From the sequence record PQ478073.1: a DNA stretch of 64,000 nt; one strand, written 5' to 3'. This DNA is from a phage. The notes beneath the pieces are model-generated. The model searched no databases and was not told where the DNA came from. It saw nothing but the letters and a program-made list of their open reading frames with translations. The position numbers and the translations under genes are program-made. This document shows positions 8,921 through 51,125 of this stretch, one piece after another. Numbering within the stretch: position 1 is the first letter of the stretch; the number at the start of each line of letters is the position of its first letter.

Positions 8921-9189
8921 TGACTAAAGACGAAATGAAATCTCGCTTAAGCGAACTGAAGAAAGAACGTAAACTAGTACGTTTAGACTGGGATATCCTT
9001 AACAGGAAAGATGAGCAATCATATGCTAACTGGAGTTCTGATAAAGTACGAAATGACCGTTCTAAAGAAGATGCAAAGCAATTCATGGCATTATCGAAGC
9101 GACTATCATCTTTGAACAGTGAAATTACTGGCCTTCAGAAAGAGATCATTTCCATTCTTAAAGCGGAGATTGAATCACTCTATGAATAA
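8920..9189 (+). CDS. hypothetical coiled-coil protein
   Basis: ORF 89 aa; K/E/R-rich. Confidence 0.5.
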   Translation: MTKDEMKSRLSELKKERKLVRLDWDILNRKDEQSYANWSSDKVRNDRSKEDAKQFMALSKRLSSLNSEITGLQKEIISILKAEIESLYE

Positions 9190-9478
9190 ACATGAAGTAA
9201 TTCATTTTGATGATAAGATCTATATTCCAAATATTGATAGTACTGAAACATATTACCTAATCAATAAGATTATGGCTGAAACAAATACGTGTTGTCGTCA
9301 ACAGCCAGGAAAATATGAGTTCAGTCAGACTATTGGTTATTACCGATATGATATGTTAGAATCATTTACAATTGATAAGTCTAAAGTTATTGACATTCTT
9401 GTACAGAATGGATATAATGAACAACGTGTAAATGATACAGATTTACCAGTTTCAAAAATTGTTCTTTCTAATAATTAA
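9182..9478 (+). CDS. hypothetical protein
   Basis: start moved to ATG 9182 (MNKHEV) overlapping upstream stop. Confidence 0.45.
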   Translation: MNKHEVIHFDDKIYIPNIDSTETYYLINKIMAETNTCCRQQPGKYEFSQTIGYYRYDMLESFTIDKSKVIDILVQNGYNEQRVNDTDLPVSKIVLSNN

Positions 9479-14133: not shown

Positions 14134-14150
14134 ATAATGGGACATCACAT

Positions 14151-14266
<116 letters not shown>

Positions 14267-16857: not shown

Positions 16858-17242
<385 letters not shown>

Positions 17243-24155: not shown

Positions 24156-25310
24156 TTATGCGTTGTAACCAACTATTACGACTGAGCAGTCAAGCGGTTC
24201 TACTACTTTAAGAATTACATTATCATCTTCATCCACTTGTATTTCACTATGAACTACATGATTGTCTGAAGAATATAATTGAACTTGTGGTAGTGCTTTA
24301 CCATGTTCAGTTACTGGAACTGAGATAGAGTACATAGAGTCTTCACCGAGAACCCACTCACTTAAAGTATATTCTTTATGGAAAGGAGTAGTATGCAGTG
24401 TTTTTCCGATTATACTCAAAGAAACAGGTAAATTATCAGTTTGATACACAGTAATATTACCTTCTGCGTCTACAGAAAGATCTACACCAACTTGATATAA
24501 GTCACCACTGTATGCTTGAAGTGCTAAGTACTGTCCACGATCATGAACATCAAATGGAACAACCGCAGAAAATACACCTTCCGAAACAGGTTCAAATTGG
24601 GATAGAAGAACTGATGTAACAAAATCAATATCCTCACCACTTTCAAGAACATCAAATTCCACCACTTTAGTGTTATAATATGGAGAAGTGAGTGTAGCAG
24701 TACCTTTCCCTGATTGTGTGATAACATCAACTGGAATTGTAAATGCATCATTAACAAATTGGGTAGTAAAGTATTCTGTCCCGTCTGGTAATACGATTGT
24801 TATTACCATACCGTTAGTATCAATTTCTGAACCAGTGTTGAATAATTTACCACTAATTGAGTCATTACCAACAAATACTGGTGAAATGAGAATATTATCT
24901 ATATCACGATCTATAATACCACATTCAGGTGTATACATATGATACAAGGTTTGTGAACTACCTAAAATTGTTTTATGTAGCATAAATTTATATACAAATC
25001 CAGTATCAGTTTCTTGTGGCTCTTCAGAATATCCACGAACAAAGAAACAATTTTTATTAATTTCACTTAATAGTTGGTCATTAGTTTTATTGTAATTTAA
25101 TAGATAACCTTTATTATCTTTAGTTGTTATTTGTACTTTACGATATATTATATTAGTTCTTGGATCAACTAAATCATATAATCTATGGCTTCTTTGGCGA
25201 TAGATTCTAATATTTTTTAGTCTAGTTCCATCATTGAGGATTGCACCATCAACAACATAACCACATTCACCAAACTTATAGCGTCCAGCCGCAGCAATTG
25301 ACCTTGACAT
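24156..25310 (-). CDS. hypothetical beta-rich protein (possible structural or adhesin-like)
   Basis: 384-aa ORF on - strand with SD GGAGGG and TATAAT upstream. Confidence 0.65.
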   Translation of the reverse strand: MSRSIAAAGRYKFGECGYVVDGAILNDGTRLKNIRIYRQRSHRLYDLVDPRTNIIYRKVQITTKDNKGYLLNYNKTNDQLLSEINKNCFFVRGYSEEPQETDTGFVYKFMLHKTILGSSQTLYHMYTPECGIIDRDIDNILISPVFVGNDSISGKLFNTGSEIDTNGMVITIVLPDGTEYFTTQFVNDAFTIPVDVITQSGKGTATLTSPYYNTKVVEFDVLESGEDIDFVTSVLLSQFEPVSEGVFSAVVPFDVHDRGQYLALQAYSGDLYQVGVDLSVDAEGNITVYQTDNLPVSLSIIGKTLHTTPFHKEYTLSEWVLGEDSMYSISVPVTEHGKALPQVQLYSSDNHVVHSEIQVDEDDNVILKVVEPLDCSVVIVGYNA

Positions 25311-25370
25311 TTATCCCTCCATTGGTATAATTATTATAACGTATTTATTATGCATATCCAAAAAATGAGC

Positions 25371-26693: not shown

Positions 26694-27169
26694 TGTTAAC
26701 AATAGTGTTGTTGGTAAGTCCATTTGTGTATTTTGTGCTGTATAATATTTTTAGTAATGCTAATCATTTTAAATATGCACAAACAATTGCAAAACATGAA
26801 GGATTTTGGAATTTTTTCCCAGCGTTACTATGCTCATATCTATACCATGAACGCTATTTCATTTTTCCTGAATATAAAAATTATGGTTATGATTCTAAAG
26901 TAAATGGTATAATTGAGTACTGTATAAGAAATTATCTTAATAATAATGATAACGTCCAAGTAAGAATAGGAAATGGTAATATATCAAGAATAGTTTTCAT
27001 ACCTGATATACAAGACCCAATATACTTATATCCATATGATTATAGTATTAGTGTAGGTTGTTCGATACATGGTAGTAAATCTATGTACGATTACTTTATC
27101 TTACCACCAACACAAATTAAATTAATAGAAAAATATTTGAGGGAAAAGTTTGACAACAAAGATTCTTAG
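26693..27169 (+). CDS. membrane-anchored hypothetical protein
   Basis: ORF 158 aa; N-terminal TM helix. Confidence 0.5.
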   Translation: MLTIVLLVSPFVYFVLYNIFSNANHFKYAQTIAKHEGFWNFFPALLCSYLYHERYFIFPEYKNYGYDSKVNGIIEYCIRNYLNNNDNVQVRIGNGNISRIVFIPDIQDPIYLYPYDYSISVGCSIHGSKSMYDYFILPPTQIKLIEKYLREKFDNKDS

Positions 27170-27210
27170 TATTATAATTAACACACCAAGTAACCCAAGG
27201 GGGATGGAAA

Positions 27211-28093: not shown

Positions 28094-28515
28094 GAGGCTA
28101 TAATAAGATTTGTATTTTTGTATTTTTAGTTTGTGCATTCAATTCGTTTGGTTACTACTGTACAGAAAATAATATTTCATATGGTTTAAATCCTTTGTGG
28201 TTTACAATTTCCAATGTAGCACAAATTGGTATTGCTCTTATGTCTGCACTTATGTTCTGTCCAATTGTCACTATGGATACGGATCATGAAAGGCTTGGAT
28301 TTCTCCGTGATACTGGAGACGAACCTTACAGTAGATTGATTGTGTTGTATCCATTTATTGTTATTTTAGGTACTAACATCCAACTTGGGTCATTATCTAA
28401 TAGTGTTACATCAGCAGCTATTGCTATATTTGCATTCACATTTTTTATGGTACACAAATCAGTACTTAATTGGTATATCACAAAAATGGCAGAAGAAGGT
28501 ACTAAAAATACTTGA
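28090..28515 (+). CDS. integral membrane protein
   Basis: ORF 141 aa; hydrophobic helices; ATGA overlap. Confidence 0.5.
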   Translation: MRGYNKICIFVFLVCAFNSFGYYCTENNISYGLNPLWFTISNVAQIGIALMSALMFCPIVTMDTDHERLGFLRDTGDEPYSRLIVLYPFIVILGTNIQLGSLSNSVTSAAIAIFAFTFFMVHKSVLNWYITKMAEEGTKNT

Positions 28516-28540
28516 CATAATTTAGTATGTTATATATAAT
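28512..28540 (+). promoter_or_regulatory. sigma70-type promoter TTGACA-N17-TATAAT
   Basis: consensus hexamers upstream of 28575 gene. Confidence 0.6.
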
Positions 28541-28826: not shown

Positions 28827-28900
28827 AAGTATTTGAGATAACAAATAATATGGAGTACAATGTGCTCCTAATTTAATTATCAGCTAAAAAGGAAAACATT

Positions 28901-29587: not shown

Positions 29588-30085
29588 ATGACAACTGTTT
29601 ATATTGATAAACGATTAAATTTATTGATTACCGATTCTAGAGTTACGTCAACTATACCACGAAACTTATTTGGTTTTTTCCCACTAAGACCAAAATATCA
29701 ATATGGAGTTGTTAATCAAAAAACTTTATATGTACATGACCGTTTATTCAGTGCTAGTGGGGTAGTAAGTGAAATTGATAAAGTACTGGATTGGTTAATT
29801 AATAAAGTACCAGTTATACCTGACAGAAAGTTAAGTTGCCATTGTGTGCTTCTTTCTAAAGATTATGTTATTCATATGATTTTAACTAAAGGAAAGTTTA
29901 TTAAAAAACTTGAATATCTACATGAAGACTACACTTTCTTTATGGGAAGTGGTGGAGAATACATGCTAGATGCTGCTATTCATGAAGAACATACAACTTT
30001 ATATGATAAAGTGTTTAGTACTTTCATGGATGTGCACAACCATGATTGCTTCACAGATGATAATATTAATGTATATCGATTTTGA
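29588..30085 (+). CDS. hypothetical protein
   Basis: ORF 165 aa. Confidence 0.5.
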   Translation: MTTVYIDKRLNLLITDSRVTSTIPRNLFGFFPLRPKYQYGVVNQKTLYVHDRLFSASGVVSEIDKVLDWLINKVPVIPDRKLSCHCVLLSKDYVIHMILTKGKFIKKLEYLHEDYTFFMGSGGEYMLDAAIHEEHTTLYDKVFSTFMDVHNHDCFTDDNINVYRF

Positions 30086-30106
30086 TTTCGTCATTAGGAG
30101 ATGTAA

Positions 30107-31072
30107 GTGAAAAAGCTTGATTTAAATACAATTGCCGAAGAAGTTCTGGATGAATGTTTTGCTAATGAAGAAGTCAACACACTAGAAGCCTTAGATTTCG
30201 TTGAAGATAAAGATGATAATGAAGGTAAAGTACAAAGCAGTTTCAAATATAATATTACACTTAAGCGACCACCAAATGTTTCCAATGAAGATCTAATTCG
30301 TGATATTCAAGCTGGTATCAATGTAAAGAAAAACACTGAACTGTTAGTTCGTTACAATTATGGACTGATTATTGATGTAGCAAGTAAATGTACATGTTAT
30401 ATCCCATTTGAAGATAAGATTTCATATGGTGTTGAGGGGTTCATGAGAGCACTAAAAACCTTTGATCTTAATAAGAATGTTAAGTTCATTACCTATGCTT
30501 CTTCTAGTATTTACATGACAGTCTATAACGAAAGTTCTGACGCTAACTATATGGTACACTTCCCACGTTATATGAGTGTTCATAAGATCAAAGTAAAAAG
30601 ATTCTGTCAGGAATATATGCGTAAACATGGTGTTCGCCCAACTCCTGAAATAATCTCAGAGGGTACTGGGATTGAGATTCAGCATGTTAATAATTGTTTG
30701 TTATTTCAAAGCGAATACACTTCGCTGGATGCACCATTAGACGGTGTTACAGATGGTACATTAGGTGACATTATTCATTCACCTGCTTCTGATTTTAACC
30801 TCAATGTTGATAGTATCCGTGCACCTTTACGTTATGCTATCAATGAACTGACTAACGAATTGAGTACTAAAGAACGTGAGATTATCCAGCGTGTTCATGG
30901 TCTAGGTGAATATGAACCTGAAACGCTTCGTGAGATTGCTGATAATGGTTTTGTTGATGATAATGGAAAATATGTTAAATCCCGTTCATCAATACACCGA
31001 AAGTACAGTGAAGCTATGCAAAAGCTTAAGAAGTTAGTACTTGCAAAAGGGTACGAATACGAAGATTTCTAA
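30107..31072 (+). CDS. sigma-70 family RNA polymerase sigma factor (regions 2 and 4 recognisable)
   Basis: 321 aa, GTG start with AGGAG SD; region 2-like LVRYNYGLIIDVASKC ... VEGFMRALKTFD ... FITYASSSIYMTV; C-terminal HTH-like EREIIQRVHGL ... TLREIA ... MQKLKK. Confidence 0.65.
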   Translation: MKKLDLNTIAEEVLDECFANEEVNTLEALDFVEDKDDNEGKVQSSFKYNITLKRPPNVSNEDLIRDIQAGINVKKNTELLVRYNYGLIIDVASKCTCYIPFEDKISYGVEGFMRALKTFDLNKNVKFITYASSSIYMTVYNESSDANYMVHFPRYMSVHKIKVKRFCQEYMRKHGVRPTPEIISEGTGIEIQHVNNCLLFQSEYTSLDAPLDGVTDGTLGDIIHSPASDFNLNVDSIRAPLRYAINELTNELSTKEREIIQRVHGLGEYEPETLREIADNGFVDDNGKYVKSRSSIHRKYSEAMQKLKKLVLAKGYEYEDF

Positions 31073-31080
31073 AGAACAAG

Positions 31081-31105
31081 GGTTGGCTTATGCCAACCTT
31101 TTTTT
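31081..31105 (+). terminator. intrinsic terminator
   Basis: stem GGTTGGC/GCCAACC, loop TTAT, then TTTTTTT. Confidence 0.7.
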
Positions 31106-31629
31106 ATGGGATGAAGTAAAAGTTTGTGATATAATTATCTTGTACAATTCTGTTGGCATGATATTCATGTACCTGATCCACTCGAAAACGTAGAGGGCAG
31201 TTGAGCAGTCCGACAGTGCGAACAGCAAAAGAAACCCGTTAGATGTGGGCATAGTTTGAACCCCTCACGGCAATGCGGCTGTATAAAGAACCACGTTAGG
31301 ATAGCTGGTGGTTCCTTGATAGACATATAAGGATAACACCTTACGAATTATCTAAGGGAGAGTTATCGAATTTTGTACAGGAAAGTTGCGTCCAAAATTT
31401 GAGTACTCACATTAAGTATTTGATTGCATAGATACTTAATGAAGATACACTATGTTTAAAAGTGTAGACCGTCATATGAAACTGAAGTAGAGAGAAACAG
31501 GATGACCCGCTTTCGCACTCGTTATGAGTAATCTTCAATGCAATAGCTCTGATACCATCAGCGTCAAATTTCCCTCCTTGTGGGGGGAAGAAAAATCCCT
31601 TCCTCAAATCCCGTCAATATTAAAAGTCC

Positions 31630-31658
31630 TTGACAGTTATTAATCATTCGCGTAGAAT
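31630..31658 (+). promoter_or_regulatory. promoter TTGACA-N17-TAGAAT
   Basis: hexamers upstream of 31723 gene. Confidence 0.5.
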
Positions 31659-31722
31659 ACGTAGTATTAGAAGCGAACAGACATCTCGAAGAGATGGATG
31701 ATTAACCATTAAGGAATATCCA

Positions 31723-31932
31723 ATGAATTCAGTAATCTTTTTAGTAGTCGCTTTTTCTGTTAATTCCGGTGTACAAATAACCCCAATGAATTCCATGAAT
31801 CAATGTATAGCAGTACGTGATAGTACATACGAACAAGTAAACAAAGATATTTGGATTACAGTTAATAAAGAACAAATGTGGTGTTACAATAGTAATACTA
31901 ACACAAAGCTTATTGTAGGACAAACTCAATGA
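31723..31932 (+). CDS. small secreted/membrane protein
   Basis: ORF 69 aa; hydrophobic N-terminus; SD AAGGAA. Confidence 0.5.
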   Translation: MNSVIFLVVAFSVNSGVQITPMNSMNQCIAVRDSTYEQVNKDIWITVNKEQMWCYNSNTNTKLIVGQTQ

Positions 31933-32159: not shown

Positions 32160-32948
32160 ATGAGCACTATCGATGAACTGATTCAACGGAATTCAAAATA
32201 TTACCAACCATCAGAAATTGTGGATAACATTACTAAATCTGAGTTTGGACCGAACACACGCAAACTCATTCATGTAATGTCACGTGATGGCTTTAAATGT
32301 GATTGTTGTGGTGAATCAAATGTAGTATTCACTTTACATAAGCACAGTACTAAAGAACGTTATAAATTCAGACCTTATGTACTTAAAGGGAAACGCCTTG
32401 TACGCATGACGTTAGACCATAATGTACTGGACTGTCTTCAGGGCGGTAATGATAAAGAGAACATGACTGCACTGTGTGAAGATTGTAACGCATTACGCCA
32501 GCATAAGTTTGCTGAATACAGTGAGTTTAAACACTGGTATCATAACGCGGATCGTTCAATCGAGCCTGACGTTAACTACTGCTTCATTGAGTACATTAAG
32601 AATGCCAAAGATACATACATTCTTAAATCAATGTCACCTATTACCGTGTTTCCTGAGAACCTATTCACTACATTAAAGAATAGTTTTATTGTAGGTGATA
32701 TTGATGCATTCAAGTATTTTGACAAAGGTGCAAAACATTTTGAAATTCAATGTCTTAGTACTGCACTATGTGAACTCATTAAAATTTACATAAAAGAGTA
32801 TTTGGGTATTGACAATGTACGTGTACCAGAGTATACTTTTTCTATTGAATTCGATTGTGAATCAATCAAAGAGTTTGGAATTCTTTTCAATAAACAAATA
32901 GAACTTGCAATTCAAAACGAAATCAAGTACTATACTACTAACATTTAA
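32160..32948 (+). CDS. HNH endonuclease domain protein
   Basis: 262 aa; CDCCGE ... H ... LDHN ... GGNDKEN ... LCEDCNALR (His-Me finger with Cys pairs). Confidence 0.7.
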   Translation: MSTIDELIQRNSKYYQPSEIVDNITKSEFGPNTRKLIHVMSRDGFKCDCCGESNVVFTLHKHSTKERYKFRPYVLKGKRLVRMTLDHNVLDCLQGGNDKENMTALCEDCNALRQHKFAEYSEFKHWYHNADRSIEPDVNYCFIEYIKNAKDTYILKSMSPITVFPENLFTTLKNSFIVGDIDAFKYFDKGAKHFEIQCLSTALCELIKIYIKEYLGIDNVRVPEYTFSIEFDCESIKEFGILFNKQIELAIQNEIKYYTTNI

Positions 32949-39002: not shown

Positions 39003-39194
39003 ATGTTGATTTATCAAAGTGATAATATTCGTGTTATGCAGCATCCCTACTTACAAATCTTTGATGTGCAGCAGTATATGGAAGGTGATGACCCAAGAAC
39101 CTATGGTCGTAAGTATGATTACTTCACTGTAAAGCAGTGTAAAAATATTAACGAAGTACGACAATTAGTTCAAGAACTTCAAAACAAAGGTTGA
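39003..39194 (+). CDS. small hypothetical protein
   Basis: start moved to ATG 39003, SD AAGGA. Confidence 0.45.
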   Translation: MLIYQSDNIRVMQHPYLQIFDVQQYMEGDDPRTYGRKYDYFTVKQCKNINEVRQLVQELQNKG

Positions 39195-39220
39195 CTTCGG
39201 TCAGCCTTTTTTGTTATAAT
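39188..39220 (+). promoter_or_regulatory. bifunctional cassette: terminator hairpin (AGGTTGAC-TTCG-GTCAGCCT, T-run) overlapping promoter (TTGACT-N18-TATAAT)
   Basis: UUCG tetraloop hairpin + T6; -35 TTGACT lies inside the stem. Confidence 0.65.
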
Positions 39221-41924: not shown

Positions 41925-42039
41925 TTTAACTTTGGGACAACCATTCTTATTATGATATAATGTTTTATGTCATTCGATATAAATGACAACGGAACTATAA
42001 ATATTATAGTAAAATTTATCTCTTATAGGAGTTATAAAA

Positions 42040-49810: not shown

Positions 49811-49843
49811 GGGTTGACTACGGTCAGCCCTTTTTGCTATAAT
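49811..49843 (+). promoter_or_regulatory. bifunctional terminator/promoter cassette (GGGTTGAC-TACG-GTCAGCCC-T5; TTGACT-N18-TATAAT)
   Basis: perfect stem; cassette plus 5'UTR near-identical to copies at 51093 and 52814. Confidence 0.7.
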
Positions 49844-51092: not shown

Positions 51093-51125
51093 GGGTTGAC
51101 TTCGGTCAGCCCTTTTTGCTATAAT
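51093..51125 (+). promoter_or_regulatory. bifunctional terminator/promoter cassette (GGGTTGAC-TTCG-GTCAGCCC-T5-GC-TATAAT)
   Basis: canonical copy; identical 5'UTR ATCATTTCATCAACTCAAGAGG as 52814 copy. Confidence 0.7.

Follow-up and report, generated by a model that had tools for sequence, protein, structure and literature searches.

The gene at positions 30107-31072 on the plus strand of a phage sequence of 64,000 nucleotides (nt; record PQ478073.1, in its full length called the window here) had been read as a complete sigma-70-family sigma factor, followed by a strong terminator and a region without open reading frames (ORFs). This locus raises the question of what kind of sigma factor the phage possesses, which promoters such a protein might read, and what the seemingly empty region behind its gene contains. 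The answers differ in weight. The protein is a sigma-70-family factor, as had already been annotated in related phages, whereas the region behind it appears to harbor a large structured RNA of an apparently undescribed family.

The 3-kb stretch around the sigma gene shows 99.1-99.5% identity to the Escherichia phages vB_Eco_slurp01, UB, phAPEC6 and 121Q and ~97-99% identity to PBECO4 and others, all of which are Asteriusvirus jumbo myoviruses of ~350 kb. The window is collinear with positions ~59,150-123,000 of 121Q. It is AT-rich (GC content 29-38%), carries its genes on the plus strand up to ~57 kb and is densely packed with small ORFs, seven tRNAs and consensus sigma-70 promoters. This corresponds to what has been called the early region in the related phage CBB (PMC5259590).

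The ORF of 321 amino acids (aa) exists exactly as initially described. It begins with a GTG codon, 6 nt after an AGGAG Shine-Dalgarno motif that can be read from the sequence at 30096-30100 (plus strand), and the GTG start is supported by the MKKLDLN N-terminus that all homologs have in common. The claim that sigma-70 regions 2 and 4 are present would have fallen with a failure of profile searches, but these detect both regions and a sigma3 domain in addition. The Pfam model Sigma70_r3 (PF04539) reaches 37.8 bits against a cut-off of 25.3 (aa 162-226), Sigma70_r4 (PF04545) 23.8 bits against 24.1 (E 3e-5, aa 251-279, profile positions 4-28 of 50) and Sigma70_r2 (PF04542) 23.0 bits against 24 (E 7e-5, aa 80-140); several orthologs have precomputed PF04542 matches. 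The NCBIfam model for the sigma-70 superfamily, TIGR02937, exceeds its cut-off of 42.9 with a score of 44.7, the model RpoD_Cterm matches aa 79-283 with an E-value of 6e-25, PHROG_351 ('RNA polymerase sigma factor') matches with 1.9e-60, and a phmmer search against the PDB yields RpoD, SigA and RpoS chains with E-values down to 7e-17. Structure prediction is in agreement with these results. The AlphaFold2 (AF2) model, built from 29 sequences, consists of three confident helical domains (aa ~50-147, 154-200 and 233-313) with a predicted local distance difference test (pLDDT) of 75-89 and a low-confidence linker 3-4. A Foldseek search of the PDB with this model finds a sigmaS chain as best match (5ipl_F, E 4e-10) next to SigA and RpoD holoenzyme chains. 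The search gave 173 matches with E ≤ 0.001, and practically all of the 50 listed ones are sigma chains; their global TM-scores of 0.34-0.38 are low, as is expected for a free multi-domain model. The protein is therefore a sigma-70-family factor with sigma2, sigma3 and sigma4 domains. The gene is under strong purifying selection, as the ratio of nonsynonymous to synonymous substitution rates is 0.095 in comparison to the 84% identical ortholog from UE-S1.

The anatomy of the protein was derived from these profiles, from the AF2 model and from alignments to RpoD and RpoS of E. coli (residues F427 to E458 below are in E. coli numbering). An acidic N-terminal region (aa 1-49, 30107-30253, plus strand) has a pLDDT below 50 and is predicted to be disordered except for a helix at aa 6-19. 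The Pfam search finds neither region 1.1 (PF03979) nor region 1.2 (PF00140) in the protein, whereas PF00140 is present in many of its distant cellular relatives. Within this tail the first ~25 residues (MKxLDLNxIxEEVLDECF) are the best conserved ones across the clade. The segment aa 1-25 (30107-30181; MKKLDLNTIAEEVLDECFANEEV) remains recognizable down to 31% overall identity, aligns loosely with the N-terminus of RpoS (KVHDLNEDAE…EVFDE) and may be a binding motif or an element resembling region 1.1.

The sigma2 domain with regions 2.1-2.4 (aa ~59-147, 30281-30547, plus strand) is delimited by the Pfam match, a pLDDT of 75-89 and the alignment, and the peptides from which a region-2-like core had initially been recognized are indeed the equivalents of regions 2.1-2.4. 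The framework of regions 2.1 and 2.2 is retained, as is the FxTYA motif (F427, T429, Y430 and A431), and the conserved residues N84, D103, G108, G111, F127, Y130 and A131 align with RpoD and RpoS. The tryptophan pair W433/W434 is replaced by S/S (T/T, S/A and others in the relatives, but never W), Q437 by M and T440 by Y, so that the region 2.3 motif reads FITYASSSIYMTVYN instead of FSTYATWWIRQAITR. In region 3.0, H455 is changed to Y and E458 to V. The sigma3 domain (aa ~154-226, 30566-30784, plus strand) follows from the Sigma70_r3 match and AF2 helices at 154-199. The sigma4 domain (aa ~233-313, 30803-31045, plus strand), supported by the Pfam r4 match, AF2 and the alignment, comprises helices at 233-249, 254-264, 274-279 and 293-313 (pLDDT 76-88) and includes the helix-turn-helix (HTH) motif of region 4.2, which is present but divergent. 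Between the two HTH helices lies a clade-specific insertion of nine residues, ADNGFVDDN (aa 278-286, 30938-30964, plus strand), which occurs in every clade member down to 31% identity, is absent from RpoD and RpoS and is modelled by AF2 as a short beta-hairpin-like excursion. Since it splits the HTH, the Pfam r4 model matches only with its first half. The recognition helix behind the insertion reads SRSSIHRKY, where RpoD has TRERIRQIE; R293 is conserved in the alignment with RpoD and RpoS and is a lysine in GAP32 and XaC1.

That the phage possesses a sigma factor is known from annotation and literature. The protein is 99% identical to gp167 of 121Q, which is annotated as 'RNA polymerase sigma factor', and such an annotation exists in about 20 GenBank records, some of which specify 'RpoD' or 'RpoS', while others state 'hypothetical'. 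The CBB ortholog CBB_513 has been described as a sigma factor with regions 2, 3 and 4 in the early region (PMC5259590). Group 2 jumbo phages lack an RNA polymerase of their own and carry sigma factors, for which minimal and RpoD-like types have been distinguished (PMC7824862). The papers on Sharanji and phAPEC6 likewise treat the RpoD-like sigma factor of Group 2 jumbo phages, and the jumbo-phage survey by Iyer et al. also discusses it. Our literature search found no experimental work on gp167-type sigma proteins.

The names 'RpoD' and 'RpoS' do not fit. A database search yielded 12 close cluster representatives with 47-99% identity, whose long contigs are all of jumbo-phage size; after this phage clade there is a gap, and the cellular sigma factors follow with E-values of 1e-12 or weaker and 24-35% identity. 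A tblastn search against phage genomes found full-length orthologs from 99% down to 31% identity in Asteriusvirus and other E. coli jumbo phages, RaK2/Muenster, Munch/SE_PL, phages of the GAP32/CBB type, Serratia phage BF, Yersinia phage fHe-Yen9, Erwinia phages and Xanthomonas phage XaC1, so that all genera of Rak2-like jumbo phages are represented; only marginal matches came from Bacillus phages, cyanophages and Lak phages. The clade is characterized by the insertion in region 4.2, the missing WW pair and the N-terminal motif MKxL[DN]L..I..E[VI]L[DE]E.F. These traits, with SS or TT in place of WW, are shared by the sigma factors of RaK2, Munch, GAP32 and XaC1, which are 31-45% identical to the window protein. 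The factors of Group 2.2 (Rak2-like) phages, namely 121Q gp167, CBB_513, GAP32_490, RaK2_244 and Sharanji WNN14470, form one and the same family without any substantive difference; in the literature, regions 2, 3 and 4 and a place among the early genes are ascribed to them (PMC5259590, PMC7824862). In contrast, the protein stays far below the equivalog cut-offs for RpoD (TIGR02393, 88.2 vs. 354) and RpoS (TIGR02394, 70.4 vs. 378.7) and that of PRK05658 (63.9 vs. 555). Its architecture of sigma2, sigma3 and sigma4 without region 1.1 resembles that of group 3 sigma factors, but the respective models for FliA/WhiG and SigB/F/G are not reached either (TIGR02479, 55.5 vs. 189.6; TIGR02980, 56.5 vs. 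234.35). With RpoS and RpoD of E. coli it has the domain architecture and fold, the framework of regions 2.1 and 2.2 and the FxTYA motif including Y430 in common, and it differs from them by an identity of only 24-26% and by a recognition helix with RSSIHRK instead of RERIRQ. The equivalog scores, the lack of region 1.2 and the changed residues rule out that it is an RpoD or RpoS ortholog; judged by its sequence, the correct label is a sigma-70-family factor of a jumbo-phage-specific clade.

The position of the gene indicates early expression. The nearest promoter upstream, TTGACA-N17-TATAAT at 28512-28540 (plus strand), is of the host type, matches the consensus in 12 of 12 positions and likely drives the operon that ends in the sigma gene; two further sigma-70 promoters with 12/12 matches are located at 25304-25331 and 27150-27178 (plus strand). 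The interval from the nearest promoter to the gene contains a single, weak terminator-like site (28852-28868). The strong terminator that had been noticed behind the gene could be confirmed: a stem-loop at 31078-31101 with a 10-bp stem including 5 GC pairs, followed by a T-run, forms an intrinsic terminator of the operon (31078-31108, plus strand). It is the sole strong terminator across 24.5-33 kb, and the records of UE-S1 and G17 have terminators annotated at the same place. Since three perfect sigma-70 promoters precede the gene and no strong terminator occurs before 31078, the gene is probably expressed early. The ORF directly upstream (29588-30085, plus strand) encodes 165 aa starting with MTTV…, and the fEgEco12 record annotates the matching region as 'ATP-dependent protease subunit HslV'. 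Its product may be a proteasome-like N-terminal-threonine hydrolase that is co-transcribed with the sigma factor.

The sigma factor is also distinct from T4 gp55, just as had been supposed, since the same phage species possesses a separate gp55-like late sigma factor. This protein, 121Q gp591, matches phrog_12791 ('sigma factor for late transcription') with an E-value of 2.7e-154 and phrog_234 with 8e-18, whereas the window sigma factor matches neither of these gp55 families but phrog_351 only. The gene of gp591 adjoins sbcCD-like genes, as does gene 55 of T4. T4 gp55 is an equivalent of sigma2 only and reads TATAAATA. Together with gp33 and gp45, gp55 serves T4 as one step of a temporal cascade in which the host RNA polymerase is directed to new promoters, and a similar role can be envisaged for the window sigma factor, which is, however, an additional and different module beside the phage's own gp55 homolog. 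An appropriation of the host polymerase in the manner of T4 AsiA and MotA was considered and rejected, because no homologs were found in 121Q: tblastn with both T4 proteins gave chance matches only (best E 0.055). The AsiA query did find T4 itself (100% identity), and in 12 sampled rows of 1,169 records no genome was larger than 183 kb. What resembles the MotA/AsiA system is the occurrence of a promoter class with a sigma-70-like -10 box and a non-canonical -35 box before replication genes; the difference is that 121Q has a complete extra sigma factor instead of AsiA and MotA. Other phage sigma factors, such as gp28 of Bacillus phage SPO1 and gp36 of phiEco32, replace the host sigma factor on the host core enzyme for the transcription of middle or late genes and are shorter. 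None is closely related in sequence to the window sigma factor (Bacillus-phage sigma factors: E ~1e-5, 26% identity).

Which promoters might this factor read? The search for a corresponding promoter class was successful insofar as a distinct class could be found and counted, while its assignment to the sigma factor is something that we infer. ORFs were called in 121Q, 233 upstream regions were searched for enriched k-mers, and the counts were compared to dinucleotide shuffles. Three classes emerged. Class (i), TTGAC[AT]-N15-19-TA[TC]AAT, occurs 52 times compared to 5.3 ± 2.5 in the shuffles, and a CTTGCA variant 16 times compared to 1.1; composite terminator-promoter modules are among the sites of this class. 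Class (ii), ATAAATA/TATAAATA, is 18-fold enriched in the upstream regions and precedes structural genes. Class (iii) has the consensus aaaa.a.tGgGACAaa-N-gTGaTATAAT, and its core G[AG]GAC[AG]-N14-18-TA[TC]AAT was counted 22 times, compared to 2.5 ± 1.5 (maximum 5) in 30 dinucleotide shuffles. All 22 sites are on the plus strand, 18 have a spacer of 16 nt and 17 are intergenic. They precede, among others, the genes for primase (gp19), an exonuclease (gp29), topoisomerase II (gp52) and a nudix protein (gp540), as well as the DNA polymerase region (gp610) and the gene of the gp55-like sigma factor gp591. The window contains two strong class (iii) promoters of the form GGGACA-N16-TATAAT with TGa, at 14139-14166 and at 41934-41961 (plus strand). 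As the former directly precedes a tRNA-Ser gene at 14177, the class seems to drive stable RNAs, too. Fused terminator-promoter modules of about 40 nt each are found in the window at 39191-39220, 49814-49843, 51096-51125 and 52817-52846 (plus strand); here, an intrinsic terminator hairpin (GGGTTGACTTCGGTCAGCCC with a T-run) includes the TTGACT that serves as -35 box for the following promoter (…TTTTTGCTATAAT).

A 'divergent RpoD-like promoter' consisting of TGAAACG and TATA has been reported for CBB and GAP32, where it is located before DNA-synthesis genes and the gp55-like gene (PMC5259590). Class (iii) appears to be the Asteriusvirus version of this promoter. In its literal form, the CBB -35 box TGAAACG is found in the window no more often than by chance (7 vs. 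7.9 expected); Asteriusvirus uses G[AG]GACA. At homologous positions in the other genera the -35 box reads TGAAACC (CBB, GAP32), TGGAACA (loci on contigs of ~354-371 kb) or TGGGACA. The recognition helix differs in parallel: G[AG]GACA occurs together with SRSSIHRKY in Asteriusvirus, and GAAAC[CG] with SKATLSRRY in Mimasvirus.

On this basis we consider it fairly probable that gp167 acts on the host RNA polymerase and reads the class (iii) promoters as the middle step of a transcription cascade. The gp167 gene would be transcribed early by the E. coli sigma-70 holoenzyme from TTGACA-N17-TATAAT promoters. As the phage has no polymerase of its own, the product would bind to the host core RNA polymerase via sigma2 and sigma4, which we infer from the domain structure, and would redirect it to a 'middle' class TG(G/A)(G/A)AC(A)-N16-TGnTATAAT. 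These promoters would drive the genes for replication and nucleotide metabolism, at least one tRNA gene, four structured RNA genes described below and the gene of the gp55-like sigma factor, which would then read the TATAAATA late promoters. The order of action would thus be host sigma-70, gp167-type sigma, gp55-type sigma, and the altered region 4.2 with its insertion and changed recognition helix might account for a -35 box other than TTGACA. A dependence on the host polymerase would fit the rifampicin sensitivity of the related phage PA5oct (PMC7318152). The assignment of gp167 to class (iii) is based on exclusion, as MotA and AsiA are missing and no other enriched motif is at hand, on the changed recognition surface of sigma4, on the joint distribution of sigma factor and promoter in the clade and on the parallel between helix and -35 box in two clades.

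Several observations weigh against this proposal. The link between gp167 and the middle promoters is indirect, the co-variation of helix and -35 box concerns two clades only, and a literature search for transcriptomes or biochemical work on an Asteriusvirus yielded nothing. The -10 part of class (iii) is a perfect extended -10 element of sigma-70 (TGnTATAAT), and sigma-70 is able to use extended -10 promoters even if their -35 box is poor. Since the phage sigma factor has lost the equivalents of W433, W434, Q437, T440, H455 and E458, to which roles in the recognition of the -10 and extended -10 elements are ascribed, its recognition of TATAAT is not a given. Moreover, the same type of promoter precedes the RNA in bacterial islands where a phage sigma factor is missing (see below), which fits either a reading by host sigma-70 or a dependence on an infecting phage. 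It is therefore conceivable that class (iii) is read by host sigma-70 as an extended -10 promoter, and that the phage sigma factor serves other promoters or replaces inactivated or limiting sigma-70 on promoters of the TATAAT type. The identity of the -10 box and the TG to the sigma-70 consensus, the island promoters and the absence of the sigma-70 residues for the recognition of -12, -11 and TG all speak for such an explanation. Nevertheless, we regard it as rather unlikely, because the -35 box is consistently of a non-TTG type (G[AG]GACA, GGAACA, GAAACC) and the spacer has almost always 16 and not 17 nt. Class (iii) is also separate from the many TTGACA-N17 early promoters and precedes a different functional set of genes, and the k-mer enrichment gave no further motif that could be the promoter of the phage sigma factor.

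Another explanation, which we deem improbable, is that the protein mimics RpoS or RpoD and sustains phage transcription in stationary-phase or stressed cells from the promoters that the host factors read, without a temporal class of its own. Some GenBank records do name it RpoS or RpoD, the best structural match is sigmaS, and the acidic N-terminal segment can be aligned loosely with that of RpoS, but the scores remain far under the equivalog cut-offs (88 vs. 354 and 70 vs. 379 bits), a match to region 1.2 is absent and regions 2.4, 3.0 and 4.2 have other residues at their DNA contacts, with the insertion in the HTH of region 4.2 in addition. Furthermore, the nearest cellular proteins, with 24-35% identity, are separated from the phage clade by a large gap. 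That the protein is a mere decoy or anti-host factor, which binds the core polymerase in competition with sigma-70 to shut off host transcription, is very improbable. It has no direct support, except that the missing WW pair, which takes part in melting, might point to a lost competence for initiation; the alternative sigma factors FliA and SigF also lack this pair, and all three DNA- or core-binding domains including the recognition helix of sigma4 are kept under purifying selection throughout a wide clade. The cascade with gp167 in its middle step thus remains the interpretation that we prefer.

The second part of the locus is the region behind the sigma gene, for which 620 nt without ORF had been reported. 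It is correct that no conserved ORF exists here, but the region measures 650 nt (31073-31722) and is not empty, as a promoter and the gene of a structured RNA are located in it. In 121Q it has no annotation, and the UE-S1 record marks a part of it as 'repeat_region'. A 'middle-like' class (iii) promoter with a weak -35 box is located at 31108-31135 (plus strand); it consists of GGGATG (31108-31113), a 16-nt spacer, the extended -10 TGa (31127-31129) and TATAAT (31130-31135), and it overlaps the T-run of the sigma operon terminator. The conserved 5' end of the RNA family at 31142 follows ~7 nt after the -10 element. On the evidence of covariation, the segment 31142-31622 (plus strand) is the gene of a large structured non-coding RNA of roughly 480 nt (~450-500 nt across the family), with a conserved core at 31142-31569 and an approximate 3' end; its 3' part contains a conserved hairpin (31570-31589) and the conserved sequence CAAATCCCGTCAA (31605-31617). 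A host-type early promoter, TTGACA-N17-TAGAAT (11/12; 31630-31658, plus strand), then precedes the next operon, whose ORFs start at 31723 and which includes a gene for an HNH endonuclease (121Q gp170; 32160-32948, plus strand).

The central ~450 nt of this region show ~70% DNA identity to sequences in CBB, GAP32, Serratia phage BF and in Erwinia, Yersinia, Munch, Klebsiella and Xanthomonas phages, where homologs occur at 3-5 places per genome and the neighboring sigma protein is only 31-37% identical. Four copies exist in 121Q, all on the plus strand and in ORF-free gaps: 90,303-90,728 (the copy of the window), 192,808-193,254, 247,487-247,963 and 326,645-327,060. The latter three have strong class (iii) promoters in front (192,743, 247,439 and 326,601), and a promoter of this class is present at most homologs, too. 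A 23-nt pattern detected 41 stretches in viral contigs, 4 of which were chance matches that the profile removed; the stretches belong nearly all to contigs of jumbo-phage size or fragments thereof, with 2-4 per genome. A preceding scan with the 14-mer CACGGCAATGCGGC had given mostly chance matches in unrelated contigs and was superseded by the longer pattern.

The case for a structured RNA rests on covariation. In an alignment of 27 representatives with less than 93% identity, RNAalifold predicts 63 base pairs in 14 helices, and 41 of the 63 show compensatory double changes. Several pairs occur without a single broken case (for instance UA 11, AU 9 and CG 7 times at one pair). Altogether 95.4% of the alignment cells can pair. 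Shuffling the columns lowers this share to 77.3 ± 0.6%, and none of 500 shuffles comes up to the observed value; sliding the partners by 1-3 columns lowers it to 35-42%, with a covariation score of 0.07-0.09 as opposed to 0.52 in the actual register. Because G-U pairs are frequent, the structure is specific to the plus strand. Single-sequence folding was uninformative (z-scores of -1.3 for the plus and -1.6 for the minus strand). A protein-coding reading of 31142-31622 can be dismissed, since no ORF is conserved in position and strand and 83% of the gap runs are not multiples of three.

The family seems to be novel. At the gathering thresholds of Rfam 15 there was no match in the window or in four bacterial loci. 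When the E-values were relaxed, the matches of the window copy were scattered, below threshold and at chance level and belonged to no shared family, and in six diverse phage loci three matches were found, all of them outside the RNA. The RNA-seq-supported ncRNA001 and ncRNA002 of PA5oct show no homology by nhmmer at maximum sensitivity, and a full-text literature search found no description of the family. It is therefore apparently undescribed.

One copy of the RNA is usually located 0-5 kb downstream of the sigma gene, but the linkage is not strict, as the gene for 318 aa upstream of the RNA copy in Munch does not encode a sigma factor (BLASTP E 0.11). In 121Q an endonuclease gene (HNH gp170, HNH gp513 or endonuclease VII gp594) is found no more than about 1 kb away from three of the four RNA paralogs, and in GAP32 an HNH gene directly follows the sigma gene. 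This proximity could be a coincidence or could indicate a link to mobile DNA.

The RNA is not restricted to phages. Among bacterial and archaeal contigs, with one genome per species, the 23-nt pattern gave 80 stretches, of which the profile removed 71 as chance matches. Nine full-length bacterial copies remained in the profile search (E 1e-72 to 1e-82; loci L210, 3520-4027; L229, 3752-4152; L239, L201, L218, L176, L213, L184 and L237). Eight of them are from Enterobacterales (Citrobacter amalonaticus, Silvania, Buttiauxella, Enterobacter chinensis, two Serratia and two Enterobacteriaceae), one of the Serratia copies being part of a complete chromosome (L229; Serratia fonticola, NZ_CP183218.1); the ninth is on a contig of 2.8 kb that was binned as Clostridium. 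Seven loci have an integrase gene 0.1-2.1 kb from the RNA, of the large serine recombinase type in five of them and of the tyrosine type in two. In four loci the RNA is closely followed by a CI/LexA-type repressor gene on the opposite strand, and one locus additionally has ParB-like genes and abuts rof and tilS. The promoter TGAAAC(A)/GAAATG-N16-TATA(A/C)T is kept in all nine copies. Complete E. coli genomes contain a partial match (40% of the query, 70% identity) in 2 of 5,426 cases; the one in LR-29-1 (L255, ~9001-9207) was left unannotated by the Prokaryotic Genome Annotation Pipeline (PGAP) and belongs to an ~11-kb island between ffs and ybaA.

We tentatively suggest that this apparently undescribed family of large RNAs, present in about four copies per Rak2-like genome, each an independent transcription unit behind a class (iii) promoter, might function as a cis- or trans-acting replication element (an origin or primer transcript), as a ribozyme or as part of a ribonucleoprotein, and that the bacterial islands might be satellites or defense elements which respond to jumbo-phage infection, or exploit it, by way of the phage sigma factor. 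The anatomy of the enterobacterial elements is consistent with the idea that they exploit or sense Rak2-like phages through the RNA and its promoter. The dispersed, co-oriented and middle-promoter-driven copies would likewise be consistent with an element of the origin or primer type, by analogy to oriF and oriG of T4. Satellites of jumbo phages have recently been demonstrated in Pseudomonas (PNAS 2025, PMC12595487). These islands are not the same elements, since they are adjacent to the tmRNA gene and of a different kind, and no RNA is mentioned there (PMC12595487).

Comparisons to known RNAs can be drawn as analogies only. GOLLD and ROOL are large structured phage-associated RNAs, and RNA II of ColE1 and the transcripts of T4 oriF and oriG are primer or origin transcripts. 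The jumbo-phage RNA would be similar to GOLLD and ROOL in that it has more than 400 nt, forms many helices, is conserved and occurs on phages and mobile elements, and to ColE1 RNA II and the R-loops of oriF and oriG in that its dispersed copies seem to be driven by middle-type promoters. It differs from GOLLD, ROOL and HEARO inasmuch as it matches no Rfam 15 family, these included.

Two further features of the window concern neither the sigma factor nor the RNA. The tRNA-Ser gene at 16897-16988 (plus strand) has, according to ARAGORN, the unusual anticodon ACT with an unmodified A34, and the annotation in 121Q is the same. At ~58,000-64,000 the genes are on the minus strand, the GC skew changes its sign and a tandem array of paralogs begins, whose 121Q counterparts gp234-248 bear the annotation 'putative DNA condensation proteins' (RCC1-like); the array contains repeats of ~110 nt with ~90% identity, which are located between the genes or in their N-terminal parts.

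Concerning the sigma factor itself, our analysis adds little to what is known: it confirms the annotation and replaces the labels 'RpoD' and 'RpoS' by that of an orphan phage clade of the sigma-70 family. What is new is the definition of this clade at the level of residues, a quantified candidate promoter class together with a candidate cascade, and the finding that the 'ORF-free region' consists of a promoter and a probable large structured RNA gene which is shared with integrated elements of the hosts. The proposed cascade of three steps with explicit promoters is testable in Rak2-like jumbo phages, a group employed in work on phage therapy, and it would offer a case in which an altered sigma region 4.2 can be paired with an altered -35 box. 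The more interesting part is the RNA, since it is present in multiple copies, is common to a clade of giant phages and to integrase-bearing islands of their hosts, is absent from Rfam and is left unannotated by PGAP. Large conserved RNAs of unknown function are rare. If our interpretation is correct, an RNA that is shared by phages and candidate satellites would bear on the replication of giant phages or on their parasitism.

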